A DNA stretch of 64,000 nt from Chitinophaga pinensis. Its GTDB lineage: Bacteria > Bacteroidota > Bacteroidia > Chitinophagales > Chitinophagaceae. Every line of letters begins with the position of its first letter. The first letter of the stretch is position 1. A program made the position numbers and the translations under genes. Under the pieces are notes generated by a model that saw only the letters and a list, made by a program, of their open reading frames with translations, had not been told where the DNA came from and made no database searches. The DNA lies in NCBI GenBank assembly GCA_945865645.1, contig CAMBEI010000003.1, positions 8,308 to 72,307 of the forward strand, in the 5' to 3' direction. Shown one piece after another: positions 1 to 20,806 of the stretch.

Positions 1-977
1 GCCAAAAAATTTTTCAGCGGATCCTTATATTTTTCAGTTACATCTTTCGCAATTTTATATTCAGCATTTATTTTTTCGTCGCTGGTAGCTTTTGCTTCCA
101 ATACCAGAAAGTCGTTTGCGTTACGAACATCATCCTTTAACCTGCTGGCTTCAATTTCCTTCAGCCATCCACTATCATAGGCCTGTTTGGCAATATTTTT
201 TGCACCTAGTTTATCAAAATCATCAACAAATATCGTAATCTTATTATAATTGGGTAATGCCTTGTCCAGTTTTTCCTTTGCTGTATTATAAGCTTTTAGA
301 AGTGTTGTATCGTTGGGATTTTTTTCTTTTTTTGCAAGTGTTTCACTTACCTCTTTTTTATATTTATCAACTTTTAAAAACTTCTCCAGGTTTTCATTCA
401 TTTTACTGTTTTCAAAATTATCGAATAAAAAAACAGTTAAAATGGTACCCAATGCTATAATGCCTAACCTAAGCCATACATTCCGCATGATGGTTATTAC
501 AGTAATAAAAATAGATATTAGCATTCCAATAAGCGGTGCCATAAAAATAAAAATTACAGTTTTTATGATGATGTCTGATTCTACAATCTTTCCCCAGCTT
601 ATTCCAAAACCTTTAATGGAAATGGCGTGTGCTATGGCAGCTCCGGCAAATCCACCAATCAGCGTATGGGATGAGGATGATGGAATACCATACCACCAGG
701 TTAATAAATTCCAGAATATGGCGGCAATAAGGCCCGATAAGATAACAGGTAGTGTTATAAATTCTCTGTTAACCGTTTTACTAATGGTATTGGCAACTGC
801 ATGATCTTTAAAAATAAAATAAGCCACACAATTAAAAAAAGCTGCCCAAACCACCGCCTGAAAAGGCGTAAGCACTTTGGTAGAAACTACCGTGGCTATA
901 GAGTTGGCCGCATCGTGAAATCCGTTGATGTAGTCGAATATTAAAGCCAGTGCTATAATTACTATTACAAGAGTCAT
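1..977 (-). CDS. Inorganic phosphate transporter, PiT family (3' end runs off window; long hydrophilic insertion)
   Basis: Manual translation from ATG at 977: MTLVIVIIALALIFDYINGFHDAANSIATVVSTK (PiT signature GFHDAAN) and later GGIPSSSSHTLIGG. The frame was open in the segments I translated, down to base 1. Missing from the ORF track because there is no stop in the window. Confidence 0.93.
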   Translation of the reverse strand, partial: MTLVIVIIALALIFDYINGFHDAANSIATVVSTKVLTPFQAVVWAAFFNCVAYFIFKDHAVANTISKTVNREFITLPVILSGLIAAIFWNLLTWWYGIPSSSSHTLIGGFAGAAIAHAISIKGFGISWGKIVESDIIIKTVIFIFMAPLIGMLISIFITVITIMRNVWLRLGIIALGTILTVFLFDNFENSKMNENLEKFLKVDKYKKEVSETLAKKEKNPNDTTLLKAYNTAKEKLDKALPNYNKITIFVDDFDKLGAKNIAKQAYDSGWLKEIEASRLKDDVRNANDFLVLEAKATSDEKINAEYKIAKDVTEKYKDPLKNFL

Positions 978-1084
978 ATTTTTTTATAATGTGCTAAAGT
1001 GCTGATGTGTTAATAAACTGATTTTTCAAAATTTTGGATAATCGGCGTTAGTTATTAACTTATCAGCATATTGGCTAATTAGAG

Positions 1085-1735
1085 TTAAGCATATTTTACA
1101 ATTATACTTTCTATCACATTGGCTGCATCCTCACATTTATCCGTTACAATTTCCATTACCTGGTATATTTCTCTTTTTTTAATCACTTCTTTAGCATCTA
1201 GTTCTTCGGCAAAAAGCTTTTCAATACTCATATCAAAAATATCATCCCCCTGATTTTCTATACTATTAATTGCCACCAAAGCATCTGTGATTTTACGCAT
1301 GTCTTTCATATTGCGTAATTCGGTAACTGCATTATGCACGGCAACGCAACCACTAGAAATAATATCGGCCATTTTATGGATGCCGGTATCATTGGGATTA
1401 ACGCGATAAAAATTTATTTTTTTTGCAGAGGCATAAATATAATCAGCAATATCATCTAAGGCAGATGCGAGATAATGTATATCTTCTCTATCGAAGGGGG
1501 TGATAAAATTTTTACCTAATTCGGTAAAAATTTGGTGTGTGTAATCATCATTTTCGTGTTCCATATCTTCAAGCTCCTTGATCAATTTGGCCCGGTCATC
1601 AAAATCGGGTTCATGTACAACTTCTTTAAGTTTTTCTCCCATTTTTACCAACACGCCTACAACACTTTCAAATAGTTGAAAAAATACCCTGTCTTTGGGT
1701 AAGAAAATATTGAGAATTGAATTTAATCCTGACAT
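1085..1735 (-). CDS. DUF47 / PhoU-like phosphate transport regulator
   Basis: FITPFDREDIHYLASALDDIADY and CEDAANVIESIIVKYA motifs; directly upstream of PiT. Start moved to ATG of MSGLNS. Confidence 0.92.
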   Translation of the reverse strand: MSGLNSILNIFLPKDRVFFQLFESVVGVLVKMGEKLKEVVHEPDFDDRAKLIKELEDMEHENDDYTHQIFTELGKNFITPFDREDIHYLASALDDIADYIYASAKKINFYRVNPNDTGIHKMADIISSGCVAVHNAVTELRNMKDMRKITDALVAINSIENQGDDIFDMSIEKLFAEELDAKEVIKKREIYQVMEIVTDKCEDAANVIESIIVKYA

Positions 1736-1793
1736 AATTATAAATTTTGGCAAAGGTTACTTTTTAGTTCAAAAAGTTAAGCCCTTTTAAAAT

Positions 1794-1826
1794 GGTAACG
1801 ATTTATTAACACATAGGTAACATTAA
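1794..1826 (+). promoter_or_regulatory. Pho-box-like 11-bp direct repeat array (3 units)
   Basis: ggtaacgattt / attaacacata / ggtaacattaa; TAAC at 1796, 1807, 1818; upstream of the porin remnant in the same orientation. Confidence 0.65.
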
Positions 1827-1855
1827 ATTGTTATTTCTTTAATCCCAAATGGATT

Positions 1856-2125
1856 ATGCTTAAGAAAAATTACCATTACTGTCTATAATGCTGCTGTTTT
1901 GTCATTTGTTACATGCACAATATTTAAAGGATATGGTTGATACTAGTAAAGTAACAGGTCGTTGTTCACAGTACAATAGGTTTTGGCTATATATATTATT
2001 TAACAGAGAATGTAAAAATTGTTTTCTATTATAACAAAGTAACCAATGAAAAAGCACAACTCCAAGGTTTTACATCTGATGTTAAAGACGATGTACTTAC
2101 ATGCAGGTTGCAATTCAGGTTTTAA
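1856..2125 (+). pseudogene. Internally deleted outer-membrane porin (probably phosphate-selective OprO/OprP-like)
   Basis: ATG at 1856, then a frameshift in an A-run. Signal-peptide-like KLPLLSIMLLFCHLLHA|QYLKDMVDTSK is joined out of frame at about 1960 to STIGFGYIYYLTENVKIVFYYNKVTNEKAQLQGFTSDVKDDVLTCRLQFRF* (beta-barrel C-terminal Phe signal). Family call is from recollection of Chitinophagaceae porin termini. Confidence 0.75.
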
Positions 2126-2130
2126 TACAC

Positions 2131-2191
2131 TTAACAATTAAGTAATATACAGGTAACAATAGCGTAACTTTTAATTCATGTTGGTATAACA
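2131..2191 (+). promoter_or_regulatory. Pho-box-like 11-bp direct repeat array (5-6 units) upstream of TonB receptor
   Basis: TAAC 2132, TAAT 2143, TAAC 2154, TAAC 2165, TCAT 2176, TAAC 2187; TTTG at 2205. Confidence 0.75.
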
Positions 2192-7130: not shown

Positions 7131-7225
7131 ATAGTTAGTTGCACATATTCAAAAAAATTCTTAGCAATTAGAGCAGGTTTATCATGCTTATCCCACCCGG
7201 TATTCTTATCAGGGTGGCTTTTTTT
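7131..7225 (+). ncRNA. Candidate ~95-nt small RNA
   Basis: Lies between the array/-7-like element and a clear terminator; no convincing ORF. Could instead be the 3' UTR of the upstream gene. Confidence 0.25.
7192..7225 (+). terminator. Rho-independent terminator
   Basis: ccaccc (7193-98) / gggtgg (7212-17) stem followed by T7. Confidence 0.75.
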
Positions 7226-7346
7226 AATATGAAATTAACGTTACGAAATTGTTACTACGCACATTTAAGTCACATTTTTTTTCACATGCCCGAAATAAGG
7301 AATTTTGAAATTATATTCACATTCACTTCACATAAAAACATAACAA

Positions 7347-7838
7347 ATGAAATGGGTTAGAGTACATAATAACGCTGCTTTGGAAAACTTTGAATTGTGG
7401 GATGATCAAATCAAATTAGCCGGGATAGCTTTTAGTAATCATACCAGATTCGCCAGGTTTGTATGTAAGATGAGTAAAAGAATTTTTTCTTTTGAAAAAA
7501 GAGGTTTCCTTTCTGTCAAGGAAATTATCCGAAACGAATATGGTATAAAGATGGGAGAAATGGAAGAAAAAATACCAGGAGGAAAAAGAGGATATATTGT
7601 TTTAGATGGAAAAAAATACAATTATGTGTTTACTAAAAATACATCAGGCGAGTTATTACTCTATGATGAACTAATGCAAAACTGCCTACTGAAATGCAGT
7701 TTCAAGGGTATTTGTAATGGGTTAACAAAAACAAATTCTTTATTAGAAACCAGATTTGCCAGTTTGCTACTGGTCCTTTGCTGGTATACCTTTCAAACAC
7801 ATAGTAATGCCATTACAAAAATGGTTAGCTCACACTGA
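7347..7838 (+). CDS. Hypothetical protein (163 aa)
   Basis: Long ORF with protein-like composition; no family recognised. Confidence 0.7.
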   Translation: MKWVRVHNNAALENFELWDDQIKLAGIAFSNHTRFARFVCKMSKRIFSFEKRGFLSVKEIIRNEYGIKMGEMEEKIPGGKRGYIVLDGKKYNYVFTKNTSGELLLYDELMQNCLLKCSFKGICNGLTKTNSLLETRFASLLLVLCWYTFQTHSNAITKMVSSH

Positions 7839-7865: not shown

Positions 7866-7921
7866 ATAATATTGACTTAATGCTAAGTTAATAATTTAGT
7901 AACTCCCAATTTTTAATTTGC
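7866..7921 (+). promoter_or_regulatory. Pho-box-like array (4 units) plus -7-like element for the PAP2 operon
   Basis: TAAT 7867, TAAT 7878, TAAT 7889, TAAC 7900; TTTGC at 7917. Confidence 0.7.
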
Positions 7922-7933
7922 ATAGCAAATAAT

Positions 7934-8632
7934 ATGCTGATGCAAAATAAAATTTCCCTCTTTACCCAAAACAAGGTCTACTTTGGCGGTCTTTTACTGA
8001 CCATATTATTTGGAATACTACTTTTACTTTTAAATGGCAAAGCTGCTGCTTTTATTGCACTTAACAGCTACCACCCCTTTTACCTAAATGTTTTTTTTAT
8101 CAACTACACATTTATAGGTGATGGCCTATTTGCATTATGCCTGATAGCCATTTATTTTTTTTACCTTAAAAAAAAACAACAGGGATTTGCTTTACTCTAC
8201 TCTTTTCTAATATCTGGTCTGGCAGCACAAATATTAAAAAACCTGGTTAATTCACCCCGGCCAAAACTTTATTTTGAGGCAGGAACGTATTTAAATTTTA
8301 TAGAAGGGGTGACATTGAGTGGCCGTTCTGGCTTTCCTTCCGGTCACACGGCTACTGCTTTTGCCATTGCTACAGTATTGGTATTAATGATGAAAAATAA
8401 AAATTGGCAGTTTCTTATTTTAAGTGCTGCGCTTTTAGTAGGTTATTCACGTATTTACTTAGCGCAGCACTTTTTGTTAGATGTAATAGTTGGTGCATTA
8501 CTTGGGTGTTTGTCTGGAATTTTAGCTTTTTATATTGCTCAGAATAGAATAAGTATTAAAAAAATACTTAGGAAATTACACCGAGTTCCAAATAAATCGG
8601 CTTCTTCAGCTTCTACTATACAAACGGCATGA
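7934..8632 (+). CDS. PAP2-family membrane phosphatase
   Basis: K..VNSPRP (C1), FPSGH (C2), SRIYLAQHFLLD (C3) motifs; hydrophobic. Confidence 0.93.
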   Translation: MLMQNKISLFTQNKVYFGGLLLTILFGILLLLLNGKAAAFIALNSYHPFYLNVFFINYTFIGDGLFALCLIAIYFFYLKKKQQGFALLYSFLISGLAAQILKNLVNSPRPKLYFEAGTYLNFIEGVTLSGRSGFPSGHTATAFAIATVLVLMMKNKNWQFLILSAALLVGYSRIYLAQHFLLDVIVGALLGCLSGILAFYIAQNRISIKKILRKLHRVPNKSASSASTIQTA

Positions 8633-9012
8633 ATAATGCCATAAATACACACATCGTAAAATACGGTCTTGTTGGTTTAAGTGGTATGGCCATAGATTTT
8701 ACCATAACCTGGCTTTGCAAAGAAAAACTTGGGATAAACAAATATTTGTCAAATGCTGTAGGCTTTTGCTTTGCAGTTACCAGCAACTTTATATTTAACA
8801 GGCATTGGACATTTGAAAGCCATATCCAAGAGTTTACAGGCCAGTTTGCCAGATTTATACTGGTTGCACTAACCGGCTTGTTGATTAATAATCTTTTGTT
8901 ATATCTGTTTGTAAAGAAATTTAAACTAAATTTTTATGTCTTAAAGCTAACCGTTATTGGCTTTGTGTTTTTATGGAACTATCTTTTGAATTTGCTTTTT
9001 ACTTTTAATTAA
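8629..9012 (+). CDS. GtrA family protein (polyprenyl-phosphate-sugar translocase)
   Basis: 127 aa, four TM segments, KYGLVG..G..ID, NFIFNRHWTF, WNYLLN; overlaps PAP2 stop (ATGA). Confidence 0.92.
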   Translation: MNNAINTHIVKYGLVGLSGMAIDFTITWLCKEKLGINKYLSNAVGFCFAVTSNFIFNRHWTFESHIQEFTGQFARFILVALTGLLINNLLLYLFVKKFKLNFYVLKLTVIGFVFLWNYLLNLLFTFN

Positions 9013-9017
9013 AAGTA

Positions 9018-10574
9018 TTGAATTATAAAAATAAAACATGGTTGCTGATTATCATTGCAACAGTTGTACGCTATATTACGGCCTGCAGTGTTGAACTGGG
9101 CAATGATGAAGTGTATTACAGGATGTATGCACAATATCTTCAGTGGAATTATTTTGATCATCCACCCATAGCAGGCTGGCTGATTCGTTTTACAACAGCC
9201 AACCTTTTTTTTGATCATGAATGTTTCATTCGCCTGGGTGCCATCATTTCGGCAGCTATTACAACCTGGTTTATTTTTTTAAGTGGCAAAAAACTGAATA
9301 ATGAATACACAGGTTTTTTGGCAGCGGTCATATATACCTGTAGTATCTACGGAAGTATCATTGCAGGTACTTTTATTTTGCCCGATTCGCCTCAAATGAT
9401 CTGCTGGTCAGCGGGATTGTATGTATTGATTGGACTGACCAGATACAGACATATTAACAGCACAAAAAAAAGAGACCTTTTACTATTTGGTTTTATTGCA
9501 GGCATTGGTATGCTGTGCAAAATACATACAGCATTTTTATGGCTGGGTTTACTATTGTATATCTTGGTGTATAACAGACAATGGCTTAAAGAACCTGCAC
9601 TATATATTTCAGCCATCATTTCCATAGCCTTATTTTACCCGGTAATAAAATGGAATATTGACACTCATTTTGTAACCTACCTGTACCATAGCAAAAGGGT
9701 TGCTGTAGCCAACAGCGGAATAGATATCAACTCCTTTTTAACTTTTAGCGGCGGACAAATATTTTATACCAATCCTGTTATTTTCTTCTTAATCATAGGC
9801 TCAACGATTGCTGCCTTTAAAAATAATTTACCAGTTTCGGTATTTCAAAAAAGATTATTGTTATTTACCAGTTTACCGCTTATTATACTTGCCACTTTTA
9901 TTTCACTATTTAAAAATGTACTTCCGCATTGGACCGGCCCTGCATACTGTGGCCTTATATTATTAACAGCTTGTTACCTCAGTAAGATAAGCTTGACAAC
10001 TGTCTTTGAAAAAACATGGATGCCAAAAATTTTGGTGATTGCCTGTATTTTTCAAATGGTTATCATTATTGCAGGAATTTTACTGATCAACTTTATACCC
10101 GGTACCTTAGGTAAAAAAGAAAAAATACATTTGGGTGAAGGTGATTTTACATTAGACATGTATGGTTGGGGAAATCTGAAAACGCAATTCAAAAAAATAG
10201 CTGAGGCTGATTTAAAAAGGGGTAGTATGAAAAAAGAGGCTGTTATCATTTGTAATAAATGGTTTCCGGCATCGCATATCGATTTTTATGCAGCCATGCC
10301 TTTAAATAAAGATCTGGTTGCCCTTGGTGATACCAATGATATACACCAGTATGCCTGGATAAACAATGAACGCAAAAAACTAAAATCCGGAGATGAGGCT
10401 TATTGTATAGTGCCGTCTAACTATTATGTGGATGTAAAAACAGTTTATGCAGGTTATTTTGAAACCATAGAGCTTCCGCAGATTATTGAACAGAAAAGGA
10501 ATGGCGAAATTTGTCGATATTTTTATATCTGGCGAATGAAAAAATTTATTGAAAAACAAAAGCCTCGTACTTAA
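9018..10574 (+). CDS. ArnT/PMT-like (GT39/GT83-type) membrane glycosyltransferase
   Basis: DEVYY, YFDHPP..GWLI, PDSP, KIH, HW motifs; multi-TM; TTG start. Confidence 0.9.
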   Translation: MNYKNKTWLLIIIATVVRYITACSVELGNDEVYYRMYAQYLQWNYFDHPPIAGWLIRFTTANLFFDHECFIRLGAIISAAITTWFIFLSGKKLNNEYTGFLAAVIYTCSIYGSIIAGTFILPDSPQMICWSAGLYVLIGLTRYRHINSTKKRDLLLFGFIAGIGMLCKIHTAFLWLGLLLYILVYNRQWLKEPALYISAIISIALFYPVIKWNIDTHFVTYLYHSKRVAVANSGIDINSFLTFSGGQIFYTNPVIFFLIIGSTIAAFKNNLPVSVFQKRLLLFTSLPLIILATFISLFKNVLPHWTGPAYCGLILLTACYLSKISLTTVFEKTWMPKILVIACIFQMVIIIAGILLINFIPGTLGKKEKIHLGEGDFTLDMYGWGNLKTQFKKIAEADLKRGSMKKEAVIICNKWFPASHIDFYAAMPLNKDLVALGDTNDIHQYAWINNERKKLKSGDEAYCIVPSNYYVDVKTVYAGYFETIELPQIIEQKRNGEICRYFYIWRMKKFIEKQKPRT

Positions 10575-10672: not shown

Positions 10673-12067
10673 TTATAATATTATTTTTTCACTTTCTTCA
10701 TTCCGGCACTCTTTTGAAGCTGCCAATGCATTTTTTAGAAAACAGCTATACCAGCTTCCCGAATTTTTTACAGTTCTTTTTTGTGTCTTAAAATCTACGC
10801 TAACGAGTCCAAATTTTGGATAATACCCTTCTGCCCATTCAAAATTATCCATCAGGGTCCATACAAAATAACCGTTTACCTTTACCCCTTCTCTTTTTGC
10901 CAGTAAAACCTGCGCAATATAATCCTGCAAAAACCGTACCCTTTTAAAATCTTCAACCCGGTATTCTTCAAAACTATCATTAAATGCTGCACCATTTTCG
11001 GTAATTATTATTTCTTTTATCTCTTTGTAATTGTGCAGTCGTTTTAATGCATTGTATATACTGGGTGGATAAACTTCCCAATCCATCAATGTATGTTCTA
11101 CATTTCTTTTGCTGGCTTTAATAATCTTTGCTTTTACAAATGGCATCAGCGGGGCATAACTTACAAACTCTCGGGTGTAATTCTGCAGACCAATAAAATC
11201 CATTTCGAAGGCCAGTTTTTTTTCGTCGTTCGGATGCATGAAACGTTCAATTCGATCCAGTATTTTTAAATCAGCCGTTGGGTAACCAAGTCCCAGTAAG
11301 GGTTCAATAAACATACGGTTAATCAGTGCATCTACTTTTGCTGCAGCTTTTACATCCTTTTCATTATTATACCGGTAAGGCTCTATATGTGAATATGAAA
11401 AAGTAGTTCCAACTTTACATTCTCCCCTTAGTGATTTTATAATTCTTCCGCCCTCGGCCTGGCATATAGCAGCATGATGGGCTGCAGCCAAAAAACTGCT
11501 TAACCCTTTTTTGCCTGGTGCATGTACGCCCAAAAAATACCCGGCACCGGTAAATACCATTGGCTCGTTAAGTACCATCCAGTACTTTACGCGGTCGCCA
11601 AAATACTTAATACAGCAATCCACAAAATAGCTGAACCAGTGTATTACTTCCCGGTTGACCCAGCCCCCTTTTTGCTGCAGGGCTTCTGGCAAATCCCAGT
11701 GGTACAGGGTTATCCAGGGCTCAATACCAAGCTCTAAACAAAAATCAATTACCCGGTTGTAAAAATCAATGCCCTTGTGATTTACAGCACCAATGCCATT
11801 TGGTAAAATACGGCTCCATGAAATTGAAAACCGGTGATTGGGAATGTTAAGTTTGTATATGAGTGCAATATCCTCTGCATAGTGTTTGTAATAATCACAG
11901 GCGATATTACCGTTATCATTATTGAAAATTTTTTTCTTCTTCCCGGTAAAACTGTCCCAAATAGAAGGGCCTTTCCCATCGGCATTATGACCACCTTCTA
12001 TCTGGTATGCTGCAGTTGAAACACCCCATTTAAAATCCTCTCCAAAATCATTTCTTGTAAAAAGCAT
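10673..12067 (-). CDS. GH1 beta-glucosidase
   Basis: WGVSTAAYQIEG, RFSISWSRI, TLYHWDLP, NEP acid/base, ITENG nucleophile, DNFEWAEG. Confidence 0.95.
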   Translation of the reverse strand: MLFTRNDFGEDFKWGVSTAAYQIEGGHNADGKGPSIWDSFTGKKKKIFNNDNGNIACDYYKHYAEDIALIYKLNIPNHRFSISWSRILPNGIGAVNHKGIDFYNRVIDFCLELGIEPWITLYHWDLPEALQQKGGWVNREVIHWFSYFVDCCIKYFGDRVKYWMVLNEPMVFTGAGYFLGVHAPGKKGLSSFLAAAHHAAICQAEGGRIIKSLRGECKVGTTFSYSHIEPYRYNNEKDVKAAAKVDALINRMFIEPLLGLGYPTADLKILDRIERFMHPNDEKKLAFEMDFIGLQNYTREFVSYAPLMPFVKAKIIKASKRNVEHTLMDWEVYPPSIYNALKRLHNYKEIKEIIITENGAAFNDSFEEYRVEDFKRVRFLQDYIAQVLLAKREGVKVNGYFVWTLMDNFEWAEGYYPKFGLVSVDFKTQKRTVKNSGSWYSCFLKNALAASKECRNEESEKIIL

Positions 12068-12071
12068 AAAC

Positions 12072-13160
12072 TTATTCCCCCAGTTGATTTAATATTTTCC
12101 CTAGGCTTTTTTCTTTTAATTTTTTAATTGAATAAACTCCATCTCCTAATTCTACAGATTTTTTATTATCCGTATTATGATGTTTTTTTATGATCATGTT
12201 AATGATCCGTTGCGTAGTATCCGGGTAGTTCACAATGATTTGCTGATCTGATGCTACCCAATCTTTAATAGTATCCAGGTATTTTTTCTTAAGACTTTTT
12301 ATAACCGGAACGCTCATTGTTTTTAATGCCGCCGCATTGCATTGCTGCTCGTACTGCCCTTTCATGGGTATTACTATCAGTTTCTTTTTTAAAAAGAGGG
12401 CTTCTGCGGGTGTTTCAAAACCGGCGCCACATAACACACCTGTGCAGTTAATAAAGCTTTCGATAAATGCTTCATTATTGATAGGTCTGATATGGATTTT
12501 TTTTACAGAGTATTCTTTTTTTGTATGCTTACTGAACACCTGCCAGTTTATATTTTTTATTTCACCCAGCACTTTAATAATTTTTTCATCGCTGTAGGCA
12601 GGCAAGTAAACAGTATAATGACTTTTATTTTCAGGTTTACTCTCTCGCATCTGGTTTCGAATTACAGGTGTAAAAATATTTTTATCATAAGCGCCAAAAT
12701 GAAAACCGTAGGCCGCCGTAACGGGTGCATAATTATTAAGCACTGCTTTGCCAACGATATCTTTCTTTTTGGGTTTGGGCGATTTTTTGTTGATCACTGC
12801 AGCCTGGTGGCTAAGTCCCACACATTCCTTATTTTGCATTTTACAGGCCCAGGCGCTTACCGGTTCAAAATCATTTATCACCAGGTCGTAATCTGCTATG
12901 GACAAGCTTTTTATTTCTTTGTACAGTTGTCTCAAATTACTTTTTCGGTAAGTGGCAATCAAATCGATGCCGCCGTTTTTTCCAAAAATAAAACTCAGCC
13001 CCTTAAACCTGTATTTTACAGGATAAGGCAAAACCACATCTGCCTGTATGCCACTCACTAAAATATCTAGCTCTCCTTTTTGCTGCAGTATAGGAATTAT
13101 ATCTCTGGCCCTGCTTAAATGTCCGTTACCAGTACCTTGTATAGCATAAAGTATCTTCAT
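12072..13160 (-). CDS. GT-B glycosyltransferase (MJ1255/VC2487-like)
   Basis: MKILYAIQGTGNGHLSRA, NDFEP, GAGFETPAEAL, GQYEQ..NA motifs; TAATG coupling to the upstream gene. Confidence 0.88.
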   Translation of the reverse strand: MKILYAIQGTGNGHLSRARDIIPILQQKGELDILVSGIQADVVLPYPVKYRFKGLSFIFGKNGGIDLIATYRKSNLRQLYKEIKSLSIADYDLVINDFEPVSAWACKMQNKECVGLSHQAAVINKKSPKPKKKDIVGKAVLNNYAPVTAAYGFHFGAYDKNIFTPVIRNQMRESKPENKSHYTVYLPAYSDEKIIKVLGEIKNINWQVFSKHTKKEYSVKKIHIRPINNEAFIESFINCTGVLCGAGFETPAEALFLKKKLIVIPMKGQYEQQCNAAALKTMSVPVIKSLKKKYLDTIKDWVASDQQIIVNYPDTTQRIINMIIKKHHNTDNKKSVELGDGVYSIKKLKEKSLGKILNQLGE

Positions 13161-14017
13161 TATTGTTTCATCAGGTTAAATTCTTCCACCATATTATCAA
13201 ATAGCTCAGCATTATTAAGCTCTTCTTCTTCGCAACTAAATTCAAACAATTGCTTCATTTCATTTTCATTGTATCGGTAAATCTTCCATTCACCATTACT
13301 GTGCTCAAGTGAAGTTAAATTTTCAATCCAATCACCACTATTTAGGTATATTATCTTTCCGTGTTCATTTTCAATTGTACGTATTTCGGGCTGATGTATA
13401 TGTCCGCAAACAACATAATCGTATTGATTGCTGATACCTATATCTGCAGCCGTTTGTTCAAAACTGTTAATGAATTTTACTGCGCCTTTCACACTGTTCT
13501 TTATTTTTTTAGATAAAGAAAGTTTACCTTTTTTAAATATTTTTTCAGAAATAAAATTAGCAAGGTGGTTAATGTGTATCAGGGTATCGTAACCAACAGC
13601 TCCTAGCTTTGCCAGCCATTTACTGTGCTGCATAGTTACATCAAACACATCGCCATGAAAAAACCAGGCTTTTTTCCCATCATCCAGTTCCAGTATTACT
13701 TTATTTACAATTTTAAGAGAGCCCATTTTAAAACCAACAAACTTGCGTAGCATTTCATCATGGTTGCCTGTAATGTAGTATATCTTAACCCCTTTACTCA
13801 TCCAATGCATTAATTGTTTTATAACCTTCATATGGCTCTTGGGCCAGTATCGTTTGCTGAACTGCCAGATATCAATAATATCGCCGTTAAGTATTACCGT
13901 TTTGGGCTTTATTGTTTTAAAATAGAGCAACAACTCTTTTGCATGGCATCCGTAAGTTCCCAAATGCACATCCGACAAAACAAGTATATCCAACTTCCGC
14001 TTTTTTATTTTATCCAT
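13160..14017 (-). CDS. Metallophosphoesterase, LpxH-like superfamily, most similar to PlcP-type intracellular phospholipase C
   Basis: SDVHLG, GDIIDIW, GNHDE, HGDVFD, CGHIH, NSGDWIE motifs; KRYWPKSH and WLAKLGAVGYD segments resemble PlcP; adjacent glycosyltransferase. Confidence 0.8.
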   Translation of the reverse strand: MDKIKKRKLDILVLSDVHLGTYGCHAKELLLYFKTIKPKTVILNGDIIDIWQFSKRYWPKSHMKVIKQLMHWMSKGVKIYYITGNHDEMLRKFVGFKMGSLKIVNKVILELDDGKKAWFFHGDVFDVTMQHSKWLAKLGAVGYDTLIHINHLANFISEKIFKKGKLSLSKKIKNSVKGAVKFINSFEQTAADIGISNQYDYVVCGHIHQPEIRTIENEHGKIIYLNSGDWIENLTSLEHSNGEWKIYRYNENEMKQLFEFSCEEEELNNAELFDNMVEEFNLMKQ

Positions 14018-14176
14018 TAATGGACTTTAAAAAATTTCAATGGCGAATAAAAAGCTGAAAGCATGGGCAGAAAAATTCTTACAGAAAGTTGCAGAAAAAA
14101 ATATTGAATATTTTTCATGACGTAAGATTATGGGTTACTAATTATTGTAAAGTGAAGCAATGTATGTAACCAAATG

Positions 14177-14203
14177 TTTATGCTAATGTTACGCGAGTGT
14201 TAA
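14177..14203 (-). promoter_or_regulatory. Pho-box-like array (proximal) for the phosphoesterase operon
   Basis: + strand TTTA 14177, GTTA 14188, GTTA 14199 (TAAH on - strand); TTTG on - strand 17 nt downstream of the 14188 unit. Confidence 0.55.
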
Positions 14204-18975: not shown

Positions 18976-20025
18976 TTAATCTTTTTTACTCTGCAGCGTA
19001 AACCCAAAGGTACTGCCCACATCAATCTTACTACGCACATGTATGGTTTGATCATGCGCTTCAATAATATGTTTGCAAATGGCTAACCCTAAACCACTTC
19101 CACCTACTTTGCGGCTTCGGGCAAGGTCAGTGCGGTAAAAGCGCTCAAATATCCGCAGCAAATGTTCTTCGGCAATACCAGAACCATCGTCGCTTATTTC
19201 TATTAAAACCCTGGCACCATCCACTTTATAAAAACTGGCTTCAATAGTGCCATTTTGTTTACCGTATTTGATGGCATTATCAAACAGGTTAATAAAAATC
19301 TGTCTTATTTTTTCTTTGTCCGCATAAACAGATAAAGACAATTCGCAGCCTTTTTTAATACTGTATCTTATTTGTTTTTCATCGGCTACAAAAGACAATG
19401 ATTCATTCACCTCTTTTACCAAATCCTGAATAATAAAATTATTTTTTAATAACAGTTGTTGGCCACTTTCCAGTTTTGATATCGAATCCAGATCATCAAC
19501 CAGGTTTACCAACCTGTCGATATTGCGGGAAGTGCTTTGCAGAAATTTTTTATTTACTTCGGGATTTTCCAAAGCTCCGTTCAATAATGTATCTATATAA
19601 CCCTGAATAGCAAAAATGGGGGTTTTCAATTCATGGCTCAGGTTTTGTAAAAATTCTTTCCGGTAGGCTTCATTTTGCTGCAGCAGTTCAATTTCCTCTT
19701 TATGTTGTTCTGCCCAGGCTTCTACATCCTCCCTTACTTTATCAATGCTTTTTTGAGGTAATATATTTTTATAATAAAACTCTTCTCTTTTACTGGCCTT
19801 GGTGTGATAAATGAATTTATAAATGAGTTTTATTTTGCGGTAGATAAAGGTTTGCAGGGTGTAAACAATTAAACCGTAAGCCCCCAGAAAGATTATGATG
19901 CATGACAATAAAGCGATCCACCATACAGGCTTAAAAACAAAAATTCCTATGGATATTGGTATGGATAACCCAAGTGCCGTTAATGCAGATAATTGCTGTG
20001 GCGAAAAATTTTTTGATGTAGGCAT
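18976..20025 (-). CDS. phoR: Sensor histidine kinase, PhoR-like
   Basis: Two N-terminal TMs, no large sensor domain; SHELKTP H-box, N-box (NLFDNAIKY), DDGSGI, FERFYR, GSGLGLAI. Confidence 0.75.
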   Translation of the reverse strand: MPTSKNFSPQQLSALTALGLSIPISIGIFVFKPVWWIALLSCIIIFLGAYGLIVYTLQTFIYRKIKLIYKFIYHTKASKREEFYYKNILPQKSIDKVREDVEAWAEQHKEEIELLQQNEAYRKEFLQNLSHELKTPIFAIQGYIDTLLNGALENPEVNKKFLQSTSRNIDRLVNLVDDLDSISKLESGQQLLLKNNFIIQDLVKEVNESLSFVADEKQIRYSIKKGCELSLSVYADKEKIRQIFINLFDNAIKYGKQNGTIEASFYKVDGARVLIEISDDGSGIAEEHLLRIFERFYRTDLARSRKVGGSGLGLAICKHIIEAHDQTIHVRSKIDVGSTFGFTLQSKKD

Positions 20026-20099: not shown

Positions 20100-20792
20100 T
20101 TACTGCTCTAACAAATCAAATTTATAACCAACACCTTTTACAGTGGTAATACAATCTAGGTTTAGTTTCTGACGCACTTTGCGAATATGCACATCAATGG
20201 TGCGGTCTCCAACAATAACTTCGGTTCCCCATATCTGATTTAAAATTTCATTGCGCAAAAAAACCTTACCAGGCTTGCTAGCTAATAAAGCTAGTAATTC
20301 GAACTCTTTACGAGCAAGTATAATATTTTTCCCCTGGTAATTAACAATGTATTTTTCTCGATCTATTTTTAAATCGCCTATTTGTAGAACTCCGGTATCT
20401 TCTTTATTTAATCTTCTAAACAAAGCATTTACTTTACTCACCAATACTTTTGGACTAATAGGTTTGTTAATAAAATCATCGGCACCGATTTCTAATCCTT
20501 TTATTTCGGTTCCTTCGTCACTTAAAGCTGTTAAAAATATAATGAGGGCATCATTAAATGCCGGTTGCATTCGAAGTATATTACAAACTTCAATACCATT
20601 TTTTCCGGGCATCATAATATCTAGTATAATCAAATTGGGGTTAAAGCGTTTTGCTTGTTCAATGGCTTCATTTCCATTTTTAGCTGTTGCCACTTCATAC
20701 CCTTCATTTTGTAAATTATACTGGATAATTTCCAAAATGTCTGGCTCGTCATCAGCAATCAGTATTTTTTTAATTGTGTTAGGTATGTTCAT
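20100..20792 (-). CDS. phoP: OmpR/PhoB-family response regulator, PhoP-like
   Basis: ADDE, LDIMMP, KP receiver motifs; winged-helix IWGTEVIVGDRTIDVHIRKVRQKL..TVKGVGY. Start moved to ATG 20792 because a -7 element overlaps the longer start. Confidence 0.78.
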   Translation of the reverse strand: MNIPNTIKKILIADDEPDILEIIQYNLQNEGYEVATAKNGNEAIEQAKRFNPNLIILDIMMPGKNGIEVCNILRMQPAFNDALIIFLTALSDEGTEIKGLEIGADDFINKPISPKVLVSKVNALFRRLNKEDTGVLQIGDLKIDREKYIVNYQGKNIILARKEFELLALLASKPGKVFLRNEILNQIWGTEVIVGDRTIDVHIRKVRQKLNLDCITTVKGVGYKFDLLEQ

Positions 20793-20798
20793 GCAGTG

Positions 20799-20806
20799 CA
20801 AAAATA
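20799..20806 (-). promoter_or_regulatory. Bacteroidota sigma70 -7 element
   Basis: TATTTTTG matches TAnnTTTG. Confidence 0.7.

Follow-up and report, generated by a model that had tools for sequence, protein, structure and literature searches.

A probably phosphate-regulon-linked PAP2–GtrA–GT-C operon of Bacteroidota as a candidate module for exchanging lipid A phosphate for sugar

In Oligotropha, the genes lpxE, rgtF and rgtE are contiguous: LpxE removes the 1-phosphate of lipid A, and RgtF, a membrane glycosyltransferase of the GT-C fold, adds galacturonic acid (GalA) from a lipid-linked donor made by the family 2 glycosyltransferase (GT2) RgtE (PMC7663294). rgtE and rgtF are also clustered in Mesorhizobium (PMC9393093). 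In this alphaproteobacterial system, in which LpxF and RgtD serve the 4′ position, the reactions run on the periplasmic side of the inner membrane, and the GT-C enzyme puts a sugar from a polyprenyl-phosphate donor in the place of the removed phosphate. Here we describe a three-gene operon in a 64,000-nucleotide stretch of the Chitinophaga pinensis assembly GCA_945865645.1 (contig CAMBEI010000003.1; hereafter the window), for which we propose a counterpart of this reaction. The operon lies on the plus strand and encodes an LpxE/YodM-like PAP2 lipid phosphatase (7934..8632, 232 amino acids; Pfam PF01569, 1.6e-29), a small membrane protein of the GtrA family (8629..9012, 127 amino acids; GtrA_DPMS_TM, PF04138, 2.1e-26) and an ArnT-like membrane glycosyltransferase of the GT-C fold (9018..10574, 518 amino acids; PMT_2, PF13231, 2.7e-24). 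An initial annotation of this DNA had proposed the three open reading frames (ORFs) and their domains, and Pfam matches confirmed all three. We regard it as probable that the operon is a phosphate-regulon-linked module that dephosphorylates and glycosylates a lipid at the periplasmic face. The complete chain, in which phosphate starvation would induce an LpxE/RgtF-like dephosphorylate-then-glycosylate module with lipid A as its target, is a more tentative reading, to which we give slightly less than an even chance.

The contiguous lpxE–rgtF–rgtE cluster is the closest documented precedent; in both, a PAP2 gene adjoins the gene of an ArnT-like GT-C enzyme. Unlike that cluster, the window has GtrA where the GT2 would stand, and the donor synthase is never in cis. 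Its PAP2 protein is of the Aquifex-LpxE/YodM type and not of the Rhizobium LpxE type, and the module is accessory and patchy and apparently phosphate-regulated rather than constitutive. LpxE enzymes form more than one sequence family, and that of Aquifex aeolicus (Aq_1706, PDB 6EBU), proven to remove the lipid A 1-phosphate, was sought because GalA replaces both phosphates in Aquifex lipid A (PMC6581854). In the Bacteroidota literature, lipid A with mannose (Cellulophaga) or GalA (Echinicola) in place of phosphate has been described, with no genes named. The full-text literature that we searched held no report of a phosphate-controlled exchange of lipid A phosphate for sugar.

Other systems share parts of the locus. 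ArnT (GT83) resembles the window GT-C enzyme in its fold, its C-terminal periplasmic domain and its acidic first-loop motif, and its donor, a polyprenyl-phosphate sugar, belongs to the class that we propose for the window enzyme. In contrast to the Arn/Pmr pathway, genes for ArnA–D, ArnE and ArnF are lacking, and the window GT-C enzyme has no ArnT sequence match in the PDB; furthermore, ArnT adds its sugar onto a retained phosphate, whereas the window enzyme is coupled to a phosphatase. In known three-component systems (GtrA/GtrB with a further Gtr protein, CsbB/GtcA/YfhO and PpgS/Rv3632/Rv3779), a GtrA-family protein works alongside a polyprenyl-phosphate sugar synthase and a GT-C enzyme that faces outward; unlike these, the window operon has no GT2 member and has a PAP2 gene instead. 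The regulatory logic and the gene neighbourhood are like those of PlcP–Agt remodelling in SAR11, Phaeobacter and Sinorhizobium and of the PHO regulon of Flavobacterium johnsoniae, as a PlcP-like gene and a glycosyltransferase gene lie 100 nucleotides downstream of the operon, on the opposite strand and behind a similar array. PlcP–Agt, however, acts on glycerophospholipids at the cytoplasmic side, whereas the PAP2 and GT-C proteins would act on a different lipid at the periplasmic side.

Coupling and distribution of the operon

The three genes are translationally linked, as the initial annotation had claimed: the PAP2 and GtrA genes overlap by 4 nucleotides (ATGA), and 5 nucleotides separate GtrA from GT-C. 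To place this arrangement, relatives of GT-C were scanned for in one genome per species, which gave at least 563 loci, and the best 80 were compared; these come from Chitinophagaceae, Flavobacterium, Pedobacter, Sphingobacteriales, Saprospiraceae, Cyclobacteriaceae and Bacteroidales. In the related loci the junctions between the genes range from −4 to +7 nucleotides in nearly all cases. A PAP2 orthologue lies immediately upstream in 54 of the 80 loci, GtrA is present between PAP2 and GT-C in 45, and the variants of gene order are PAP2–GT-C, GtrA–GT-C and GT-C alone. The tight coupling, together with PAP2/GT-C adjacency recurring across distant families, argues for one pathway. The GT-C gene of the window starts with TTG (at 9018), as do 36 of 73 orthologues with the same conserved N-terminus; this start may keep translation low or coupled.

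The module is accessory. Strong GT-C matches (E ≤ 1e-60) were found in 19 of 401 evenly sampled Bacteroidota genomes (~5%), representing 15 of 178 genera. Among 41 close relatives, any match at E ≤ 0.001 was counted; 9 genomes had one, mostly to distant paralogues. Cultured strains that carry the operon include Ferruginibacter sp. SUN106, Pedobacter soli DSM 18609, Pedobacter kyungheensis KACC 16221 and Flavobacterium aquicola DSM 100880. A locus of the same genus (L004, G001:C69:21011-24274) has lost the operon and retains an 87-codon, stop-containing GT-C remnant (residues 430–517, 63% identity) between orf163, a conserved gene described below, and a GH1 gene.

The host genome is complete-looking, has 2.08 Mb and belongs to a streamlined planktonic Chitinophagaceae bacterium whose relatives bear the names Ferruginibacter/Chitinophagaceae. 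Many lake metagenomes contain DNA nearly identical to the window, and lakes are usually phosphorus-limited. The RNA runs that we checked for the window stretch, as evidence of co-transcription, do not contain it.

Phosphatase, transferase and sugar donor

All three PAP2 catalytic motifs are intact in the window protein (K102x6R109P110, P135SGH138 and S172Rx5H179x3D183), and 40 orthologues show no variation at K102, R109, P110, P135, S136, G137, H138, R173, H179 or D183. This tripartite signature places the protein in the PAP2/lipid phosphate phosphatase superfamily. When the single sequence was compared with the PDB, the best match was Aquifex LpxE (6EBU, 2.3e-19, 38% identity over 149 aligned residues). 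Consistently, the family profile matched Aquifex LpxE over nearly the whole chain at 6.9e-30, followed by YodM (7.9e-16) and PgpB (3.5e-8); the other small PAP2 protein of the genome reached only 1.5e-6 against Aquifex LpxE. Kinship with a proven lipid A 1-phosphatase is thus suggested, Aquifex LpxE being the closest relative among solved structures. Both proteins carry the KX6RP and SRX5HX3D motifs, whereas Aquifex LpxE has PSGD where the window protein has the canonical PSGH. Public names of the homologues are unspecific ('phosphatase PAP2 family protein').

Carrier recycling appears to be a poor explanation for the coupled phosphatase. The genome further encodes BacA/UppP and two or three more PAP2 proteins, so the window PAP2 is not needed for that purpose. 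Moreover, a GT-C enzyme using a polyprenyl-monophosphate sugar releases polyprenyl phosphate and not polyprenyl diphosphate. Recycling of the carrier would therefore need no pyrophosphatase, and a role of the coupled phosphatase in preparing the acceptor is the better explanation.

The AlphaFold2 model of GT-C, built from a 71-sequence alignment, is of very high confidence (predicted local distance difference test (pLDDT) 94.2; predicted template modelling score (pTM) 0.92). A Foldseek search with this model placed the ArnT structures 5EZM and 5F15 at the top, over the full length (E 1.5e-9 and 2.6e-9; template modelling (TM) scores 0.63 and 0.61). Oligosaccharyltransferases came next at 1e-5, so that ArnT outranks the next structural match by four orders of magnitude, and matches to Pmt1/2/4 were partial (E 4e-4 to 2e-2; TMq 0.30–0.48). 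The ArnT-like nature that the initial annotation had assigned to the transferase holds at the level of the fold. Invariant features include the acidic first-loop motif GNDE, with E31, and YFDHPP; E31, D47, H48 and K168 are invariant and D30 nearly so, and the C-terminus forms a periplasmic alpha/beta domain. Pfam gives PMT_2 plus a weak PMT match, MIR domains are absent, and no NCBIfam model matches. The model suggests that GT-C works like an ArnT-type, lipid-directed GT-C enzyme, although it stands outside ArnT proper at the sequence level.

The GtrA protein matches PF04138 over profile positions 1–117 of 117 and is the sole GtrA detected in the genome by tblastn. The initial annotation had noted that the operon holds no GT2, so that a donor synthase would have to act in trans. 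This was borne out, and of the eleven GT2 genes in the genome, three resemble polyprenyl-phosphate sugar synthases: an ArnC-like protein of 313 amino acids with C-terminal membrane helices (C11:10480), a soluble DPM1-like protein of 250 amino acids (C39:3358) and a PpgS-like protein of 223 amino acids (C7:23452) whose gene adjoins a second GT-C-like gene. A GT2 in trans is feasible as judged from these candidate genes. The PpgS-like GT2 (NF058614, 166 bits) stands in a second envelope cluster (C7:23452-28672, minus strand), together with two paralogous membrane proteins of ~490 amino acids and a 510-amino-acid GT-C-like protein with a YDEGDH motif. The initial annotation had also stated that the Rgt transferases of Rhizobium act together with a GtrA-like protein; this found no confirmation in the searchable literature, which held no paper with both rgtE and GtrA.

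Phased arrays and the phosphate island

A four-unit Pho-like array had been claimed in front of the operon, and such an array exists at 7867..7903 on the plus strand. Its four TAAY units (TAAT at 7867, 7878 and 7889; TAAC at 7900) keep an exact 11-bp phase and lie 34–67 nucleotides before the PAP2 ATG, forming a candidate binding array for a regulator of the PhoB/PhoP type. The -7-like promoter element TTAATTTG (7913..7920, plus strand) follows 9 nucleotides past the last unit and is a near match to the Bacteroidota −7 element TAnnTTTG, the consensus of Bacteroides promoters. The TTAATTTGCATAGCAAA stretch is kept in one related locus (L013) despite different genes before PAP2, homologous arrays lie 50–75 nucleotides upstream of PAP2 in other loci, and Flavobacterium PAP2 promoters contain GTAACATnnnnTTTACGATTTG. 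The array units of the window resemble TTTAACA, the most conserved nucleotides bound by the phosphate-starvation-induced PhoP of Riemerella anatipestifer in DNA affinity purification sequencing (PMC9603813).

The arrays are not placed at random. The genome has only two strict four-unit arrays, at 7867 and at 2132 upstream of a TonB receptor gene, compared with ~0.7 in shuffled sequence, a difference not significant by count alone; of 13 distinct strict three-unit sites, 3 lie inside a 21-kb island that makes up 1% of the genome. A position weight matrix (PWM) was trained solely on arrays found at the receptor, DUF47 and PlcP-like promoters. In a genome scan, merely 16 positions scored at least 17 bits, and the top ones all lie in the island; the 7867-7903 array scored 13.4 with three units and 15.1 with four. 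Applied to the 80 loci, the matrix gave a median of 8.0 upstream of PAP2 versus 1.9 for other intergenic upstream regions (Mann–Whitney p 1.8e-14). In the 22 loci from lineages without the island genes, the values were 7.5 versus 1.9 (p 3.4e-9). A strict regular expression and a 22-mer PWM found almost nothing beyond the island, which lends weak support to a very small regulon. The only intergenic match of the 22-mer model beyond the island is a two-unit box, ATAACATTAGCAGTAACATTTT, at C9:20196-20217 (minus strand), 37 nucleotides upstream of an inorganic pyrophosphatase gene.

Several neighbours point to phosphate. A PhoB-like response regulator (20100-20801, minus strand; TIGR02154 222 bits, Bacteroides PhoB model 210 bits) and a PhoR-like histidine kinase (18976-20025, minus strand; best NCBIfam match PnpS/PhoR) lie 8 kb downstream of the operon as candidate cognate regulators, and such a pair is found near GT-C in 19–20 of the 80 loci. 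The island further contains PitA, a DUF47/PhoU_div protein, a choice-of-anchor-I protein and, adjoining a beta-helix lipoprotein, a TonB receptor whose set of Pfam domains is that of Fjoh_0545. Two phased arrays, at 1796-1821 and 2132-2168 (1796..2168, plus strand), lie between the DUF47/PitA operon and the receptor/lipoprotein operon. PitA with the DUF47 protein (3-1753, minus strand) stands behind a phased array, and no other phosphate transporter seems to lie near the regulon. The initial annotation's phosphate context is supported by this PhoBR-like pair, by PitA/DUF47, by the PlcP-like and glycosyltransferase genes and by the recurrence of arrays at PAP2 promoters. In F. johnsoniae, genes of similar kinds are strongly induced under phosphate depletion, namely PlcP (pf12850), a glycosyltransferase, a TonB receptor and beta-helix-like lipoproteins of the phoBR cluster (PMC8115612). 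The supplements of that PHO study were checked for PAP2, GtrA and GT39 and held only a non-significant, unrelated-looking PAP2 row.

Convergent with the PAP2 operon runs an operon (10673..14118, minus strand) for a 33-amino-acid small ORF, a PlcP-like (LpxH-like) metallophosphoesterase, an MJ1255-family glycosyltransferase and a GH1 glycosidase. It is likely a phospholipid-to-glycolipid remodelling unit, and its linkage to the PAP2 operon persists across several gene arrangements. The four-unit array upstream of it (TTAACAC, GTAACAT, ATAAACA, GTTACAT; 14160..14203, minus strand) is kept in orthologous loci and is a putative member of the same regulon as the PAP2 array. The small ORF (14017-14118, minus strand) encodes a hydrophobic peptide, MKNIQYFFLQLSVRIFLPMLSAFYSPLKFFKVH, which is conserved at the protein level in orthologous loci; its stop codon overlaps the PlcP-like start codon (TAATG). 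Collectively, the PAP2 operon has phased candidate regulator sites in common with phosphate genes, and the phosphate link of the arrays is well supported by context. We infer from this context that the PhoB-like regulator acts on the arrays and that low phosphate induces the operon.

Just upstream of PAP2 lies orf163 (7347..7838, plus strand), which was absent from the initial annotation. Its product is conserved and combines a beta-rich domain with a hydrophobic helix at the C-terminus; Pfam and NCBIfam gave no match for it, and a fold search against the PDB no significant one (model pLDDT 79.7). An alignment of eighteen orthologues has 17 invariant columns. The gene accompanies PAP2/GT-C or PlcP clusters in several arrangements: most loci have it upstream of PAP2, and two (L053 and L062) have it downstream of GT-C. 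Its composite promoter element (7223..7322, plus strand) consists of two reverse GTAACA-type units (7223-7255), three forward CACAT units (GCACAT at 7259, TCACAT at 7270 and 7282) and then GAAATTATATTCACA. This element is nearly identical in ~18 orthologous loci, and its reverse array scores 17.9 in the genome-wide scan. A stem-loop, CCCACCC...GGGTGG with a T run (7187-7228, plus strand), stands 120 nucleotides past the stop of a MORN gene and is kept in several loci; owing to its 13-nucleotide loop, it escaped the terminator scan. In 17 related loci (L013 and 16 others), a secreted alkaline-phosphatase-superfamily protein of ~363 amino acids (weak PF01676) is inserted between orf163 and PAP2 (at 3473-4576 in L013). 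It often follows an array (scores ≤ 17.5) and is absent from the window.

Competing explanations and biological meaning

We propose the following mechanism. Low phosphate would activate the neighbouring PhoR-like kinase and PhoB-like regulator, and the latter would bind the 11-bp-phased TAAY/TAACA arrays before PAP2 and the other island operons. The LpxE-like PAP2 would then strip a lipid A phosphate, most likely the 1-phosphate, and release it as inorganic phosphate, and the ArnT-like GT-C would put a sugar from a polyprenyl-phosphate-sugar donor on the freed position. A GT2 encoded elsewhere would synthesise the donor, and GtrA would help to make or flip the lipid-linked sugar. Such an exchange would keep the outer membrane stable with less phosphorus. 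The interpretation offered by the initial annotation is partly supported by our results.

A number of observations weigh against this reading. The operon is patchy (19/401 genomes) and has decayed in a sister genome (L004). The closest solved relative of PAP2, Aquifex LpxE, also dephosphorylates undecaprenyl diphosphate and phosphatidylglycerol phosphate (PGP) and resembles YodM (PMC6581854); such multifunctionality means that kinship does not fix the substrate of the window protein. NCBIfam gives the undecaprenyl-diphosphatase SepP as the best PAP2 match, far below threshold (54.8 bits), and its LpxE equivalog model scores the protein at 16 bits against a cut-off of 177. Searches of the PDB with GT-C, by phmmer or with the 71-sequence profile, returned spurious matches and no ArnT, and an ArnT-like fold alone does not fix the acceptor. 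A GT2 donor synthase in cis is absent from the operon, and none recurs in the 80 loci. Additionally, the lipid A of Cellulophaga and Echinicola keeps its 1-phosphate and has the sugar on the non-reducing (4′) side, which would require an LpxF-like rather than an LpxE-like activity and cautions against assuming the 1-position. On the regulatory side, the regulator and the kinase score below the PhoB/PhoR equivalog cut-offs. PhoU and PstSCAB are absent from the genome, as they are from Ferruginibacter SUN106, so there is no canonical Pho promoter on which to calibrate the box; the sole PstS-family (PBP_like_2) protein is a lipoprotein, and its gene precedes one for a TPR protein rather than pstCAB. 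In Ferruginibacter SUN106, three KTAAYA repeats with one mismatch gave 3 matches versus 2 in the control, the pattern being too strict to inform.

As the main alternative, a phosphate-linked module might serve another target, such as a glycolipid, a phosphate of the lipopolysaccharide (LPS) core, a sphingo- or aminolipid, or a periplasmic glycan. In the same vein, PAP2 might mainly scavenge phosphate from undecaprenyl diphosphate, PGP or phosphatidic and lysophosphatidic acid, with a GT-C acceptor unrelated to its product. PAP2 proteins of the LpxE/YodM type are indeed promiscuous (PMC6581854), and the top sub-threshold NCBIfam matches of PAP2 are undecaprenyl-diphosphatases and PgpB. Some loci have GT-C with GtrA and no PAP2, or GT-C alone, and the PlcP-like and glycosyltransferase neighbours point to glycerolipid remodelling in the same island. 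We nevertheless hold this alternative to be less likely than the lipid A reading, given the conserved coupling and adjacency of PAP2 and GT-C in 54 of 80 loci, the BacA and other PAP2 proteins already in the genome, and ArnT as by far the best structural match. In another reading, GT-C is a PMT-like O-glycosyltransferase of envelope proteins and PAP2 just recycles the carrier lipid. Pfam assigns PMT_2 and weakly PMT, and some homologues are named dolichyl-phosphate-mannose protein mannosyltransferases in databases; however, Foldseek matches to Pmt1/2/4 are weak and partial compared with 1.5e-9 for ArnT, and MIR domains are missing. With a monophosphate-sugar donor, which leaves polyprenyl phosphate, and with BacA present, no further pyrophosphatase would be needed, and we consider protein glycosylation very unlikely.

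The gene trio also recalls mycobacteria, in which Rv3807c dephosphorylates decaprenyl-phospho-5-phosphoribose and the arabinan donor pathway combines a PAP2 protein, a GtrA-like protein and GT-C transferases. By analogy, PAP2 could mature the donor, dephosphorylating a polyprenyl-phospho-sugar-phosphate before GtrA-assisted flipping and transfer by GT-C. This is highly improbable, as the 80 loci show no recurring UbiA-type phosphoribosyltransferase or DprE-like epimerase and the window PAP2 is closest to the LpxE/YodM types, whose active sites face the periplasm (PMC6581854). Finally, the arrays might bind another OmpR-family regulator, for example one of envelope stress, or reflect chance AT-rich periodicity, leaving the operon constitutive or stress-induced. 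The sub-threshold regulator scores and the non-significant count of strict arrays (two against 0.7 expected) would fit this, as would the lack of a clear array before the regulator gene itself. Against it, the arrays cluster solely before phosphate-related operons and are kept at orthologous promoters, the enrichment at PAP2 promoters extends to unrelated lineages, the TTTAACA core of Riemerella PhoP is matched, and similar kinds of gene are induced by phosphate depletion in F. johnsoniae; we judge this explanation quite unlikely.

A substantial part of the phosphorus in the outer membrane resides in lipid A, and the swapping of phospholipids for glycolipids as a means of sparing phosphorus is well documented. 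It is possible, though less likely than not, that the operon is the missing genetic basis of the sugar-for-phosphate lipid A seen in Bacteroidota (Cellulophaga and Echinicola), as a PhoBR-controlled phosphorus-sparing response. The exchange would then constitute an outer-membrane counterpart of PlcP/Agt phospholipid replacement in abundant freshwater and soil Bacteroidota, with GtrA and possibly orf163 as new accessory parts. If the lipid A reading is true, the operon would offer candidate genes for a so far unexplained feature of Bacteroidota, their glycosylated lipid A, phased TAACA units would represent a simple Pho box for the phylum, and its PHO regulon would gain an outer-membrane arm. 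Lipid A that lacks phosphate is also recognised differently by innate immunity and alters resistance to cationic peptides; the importance of the module may therefore extend beyond phosphorus saving.

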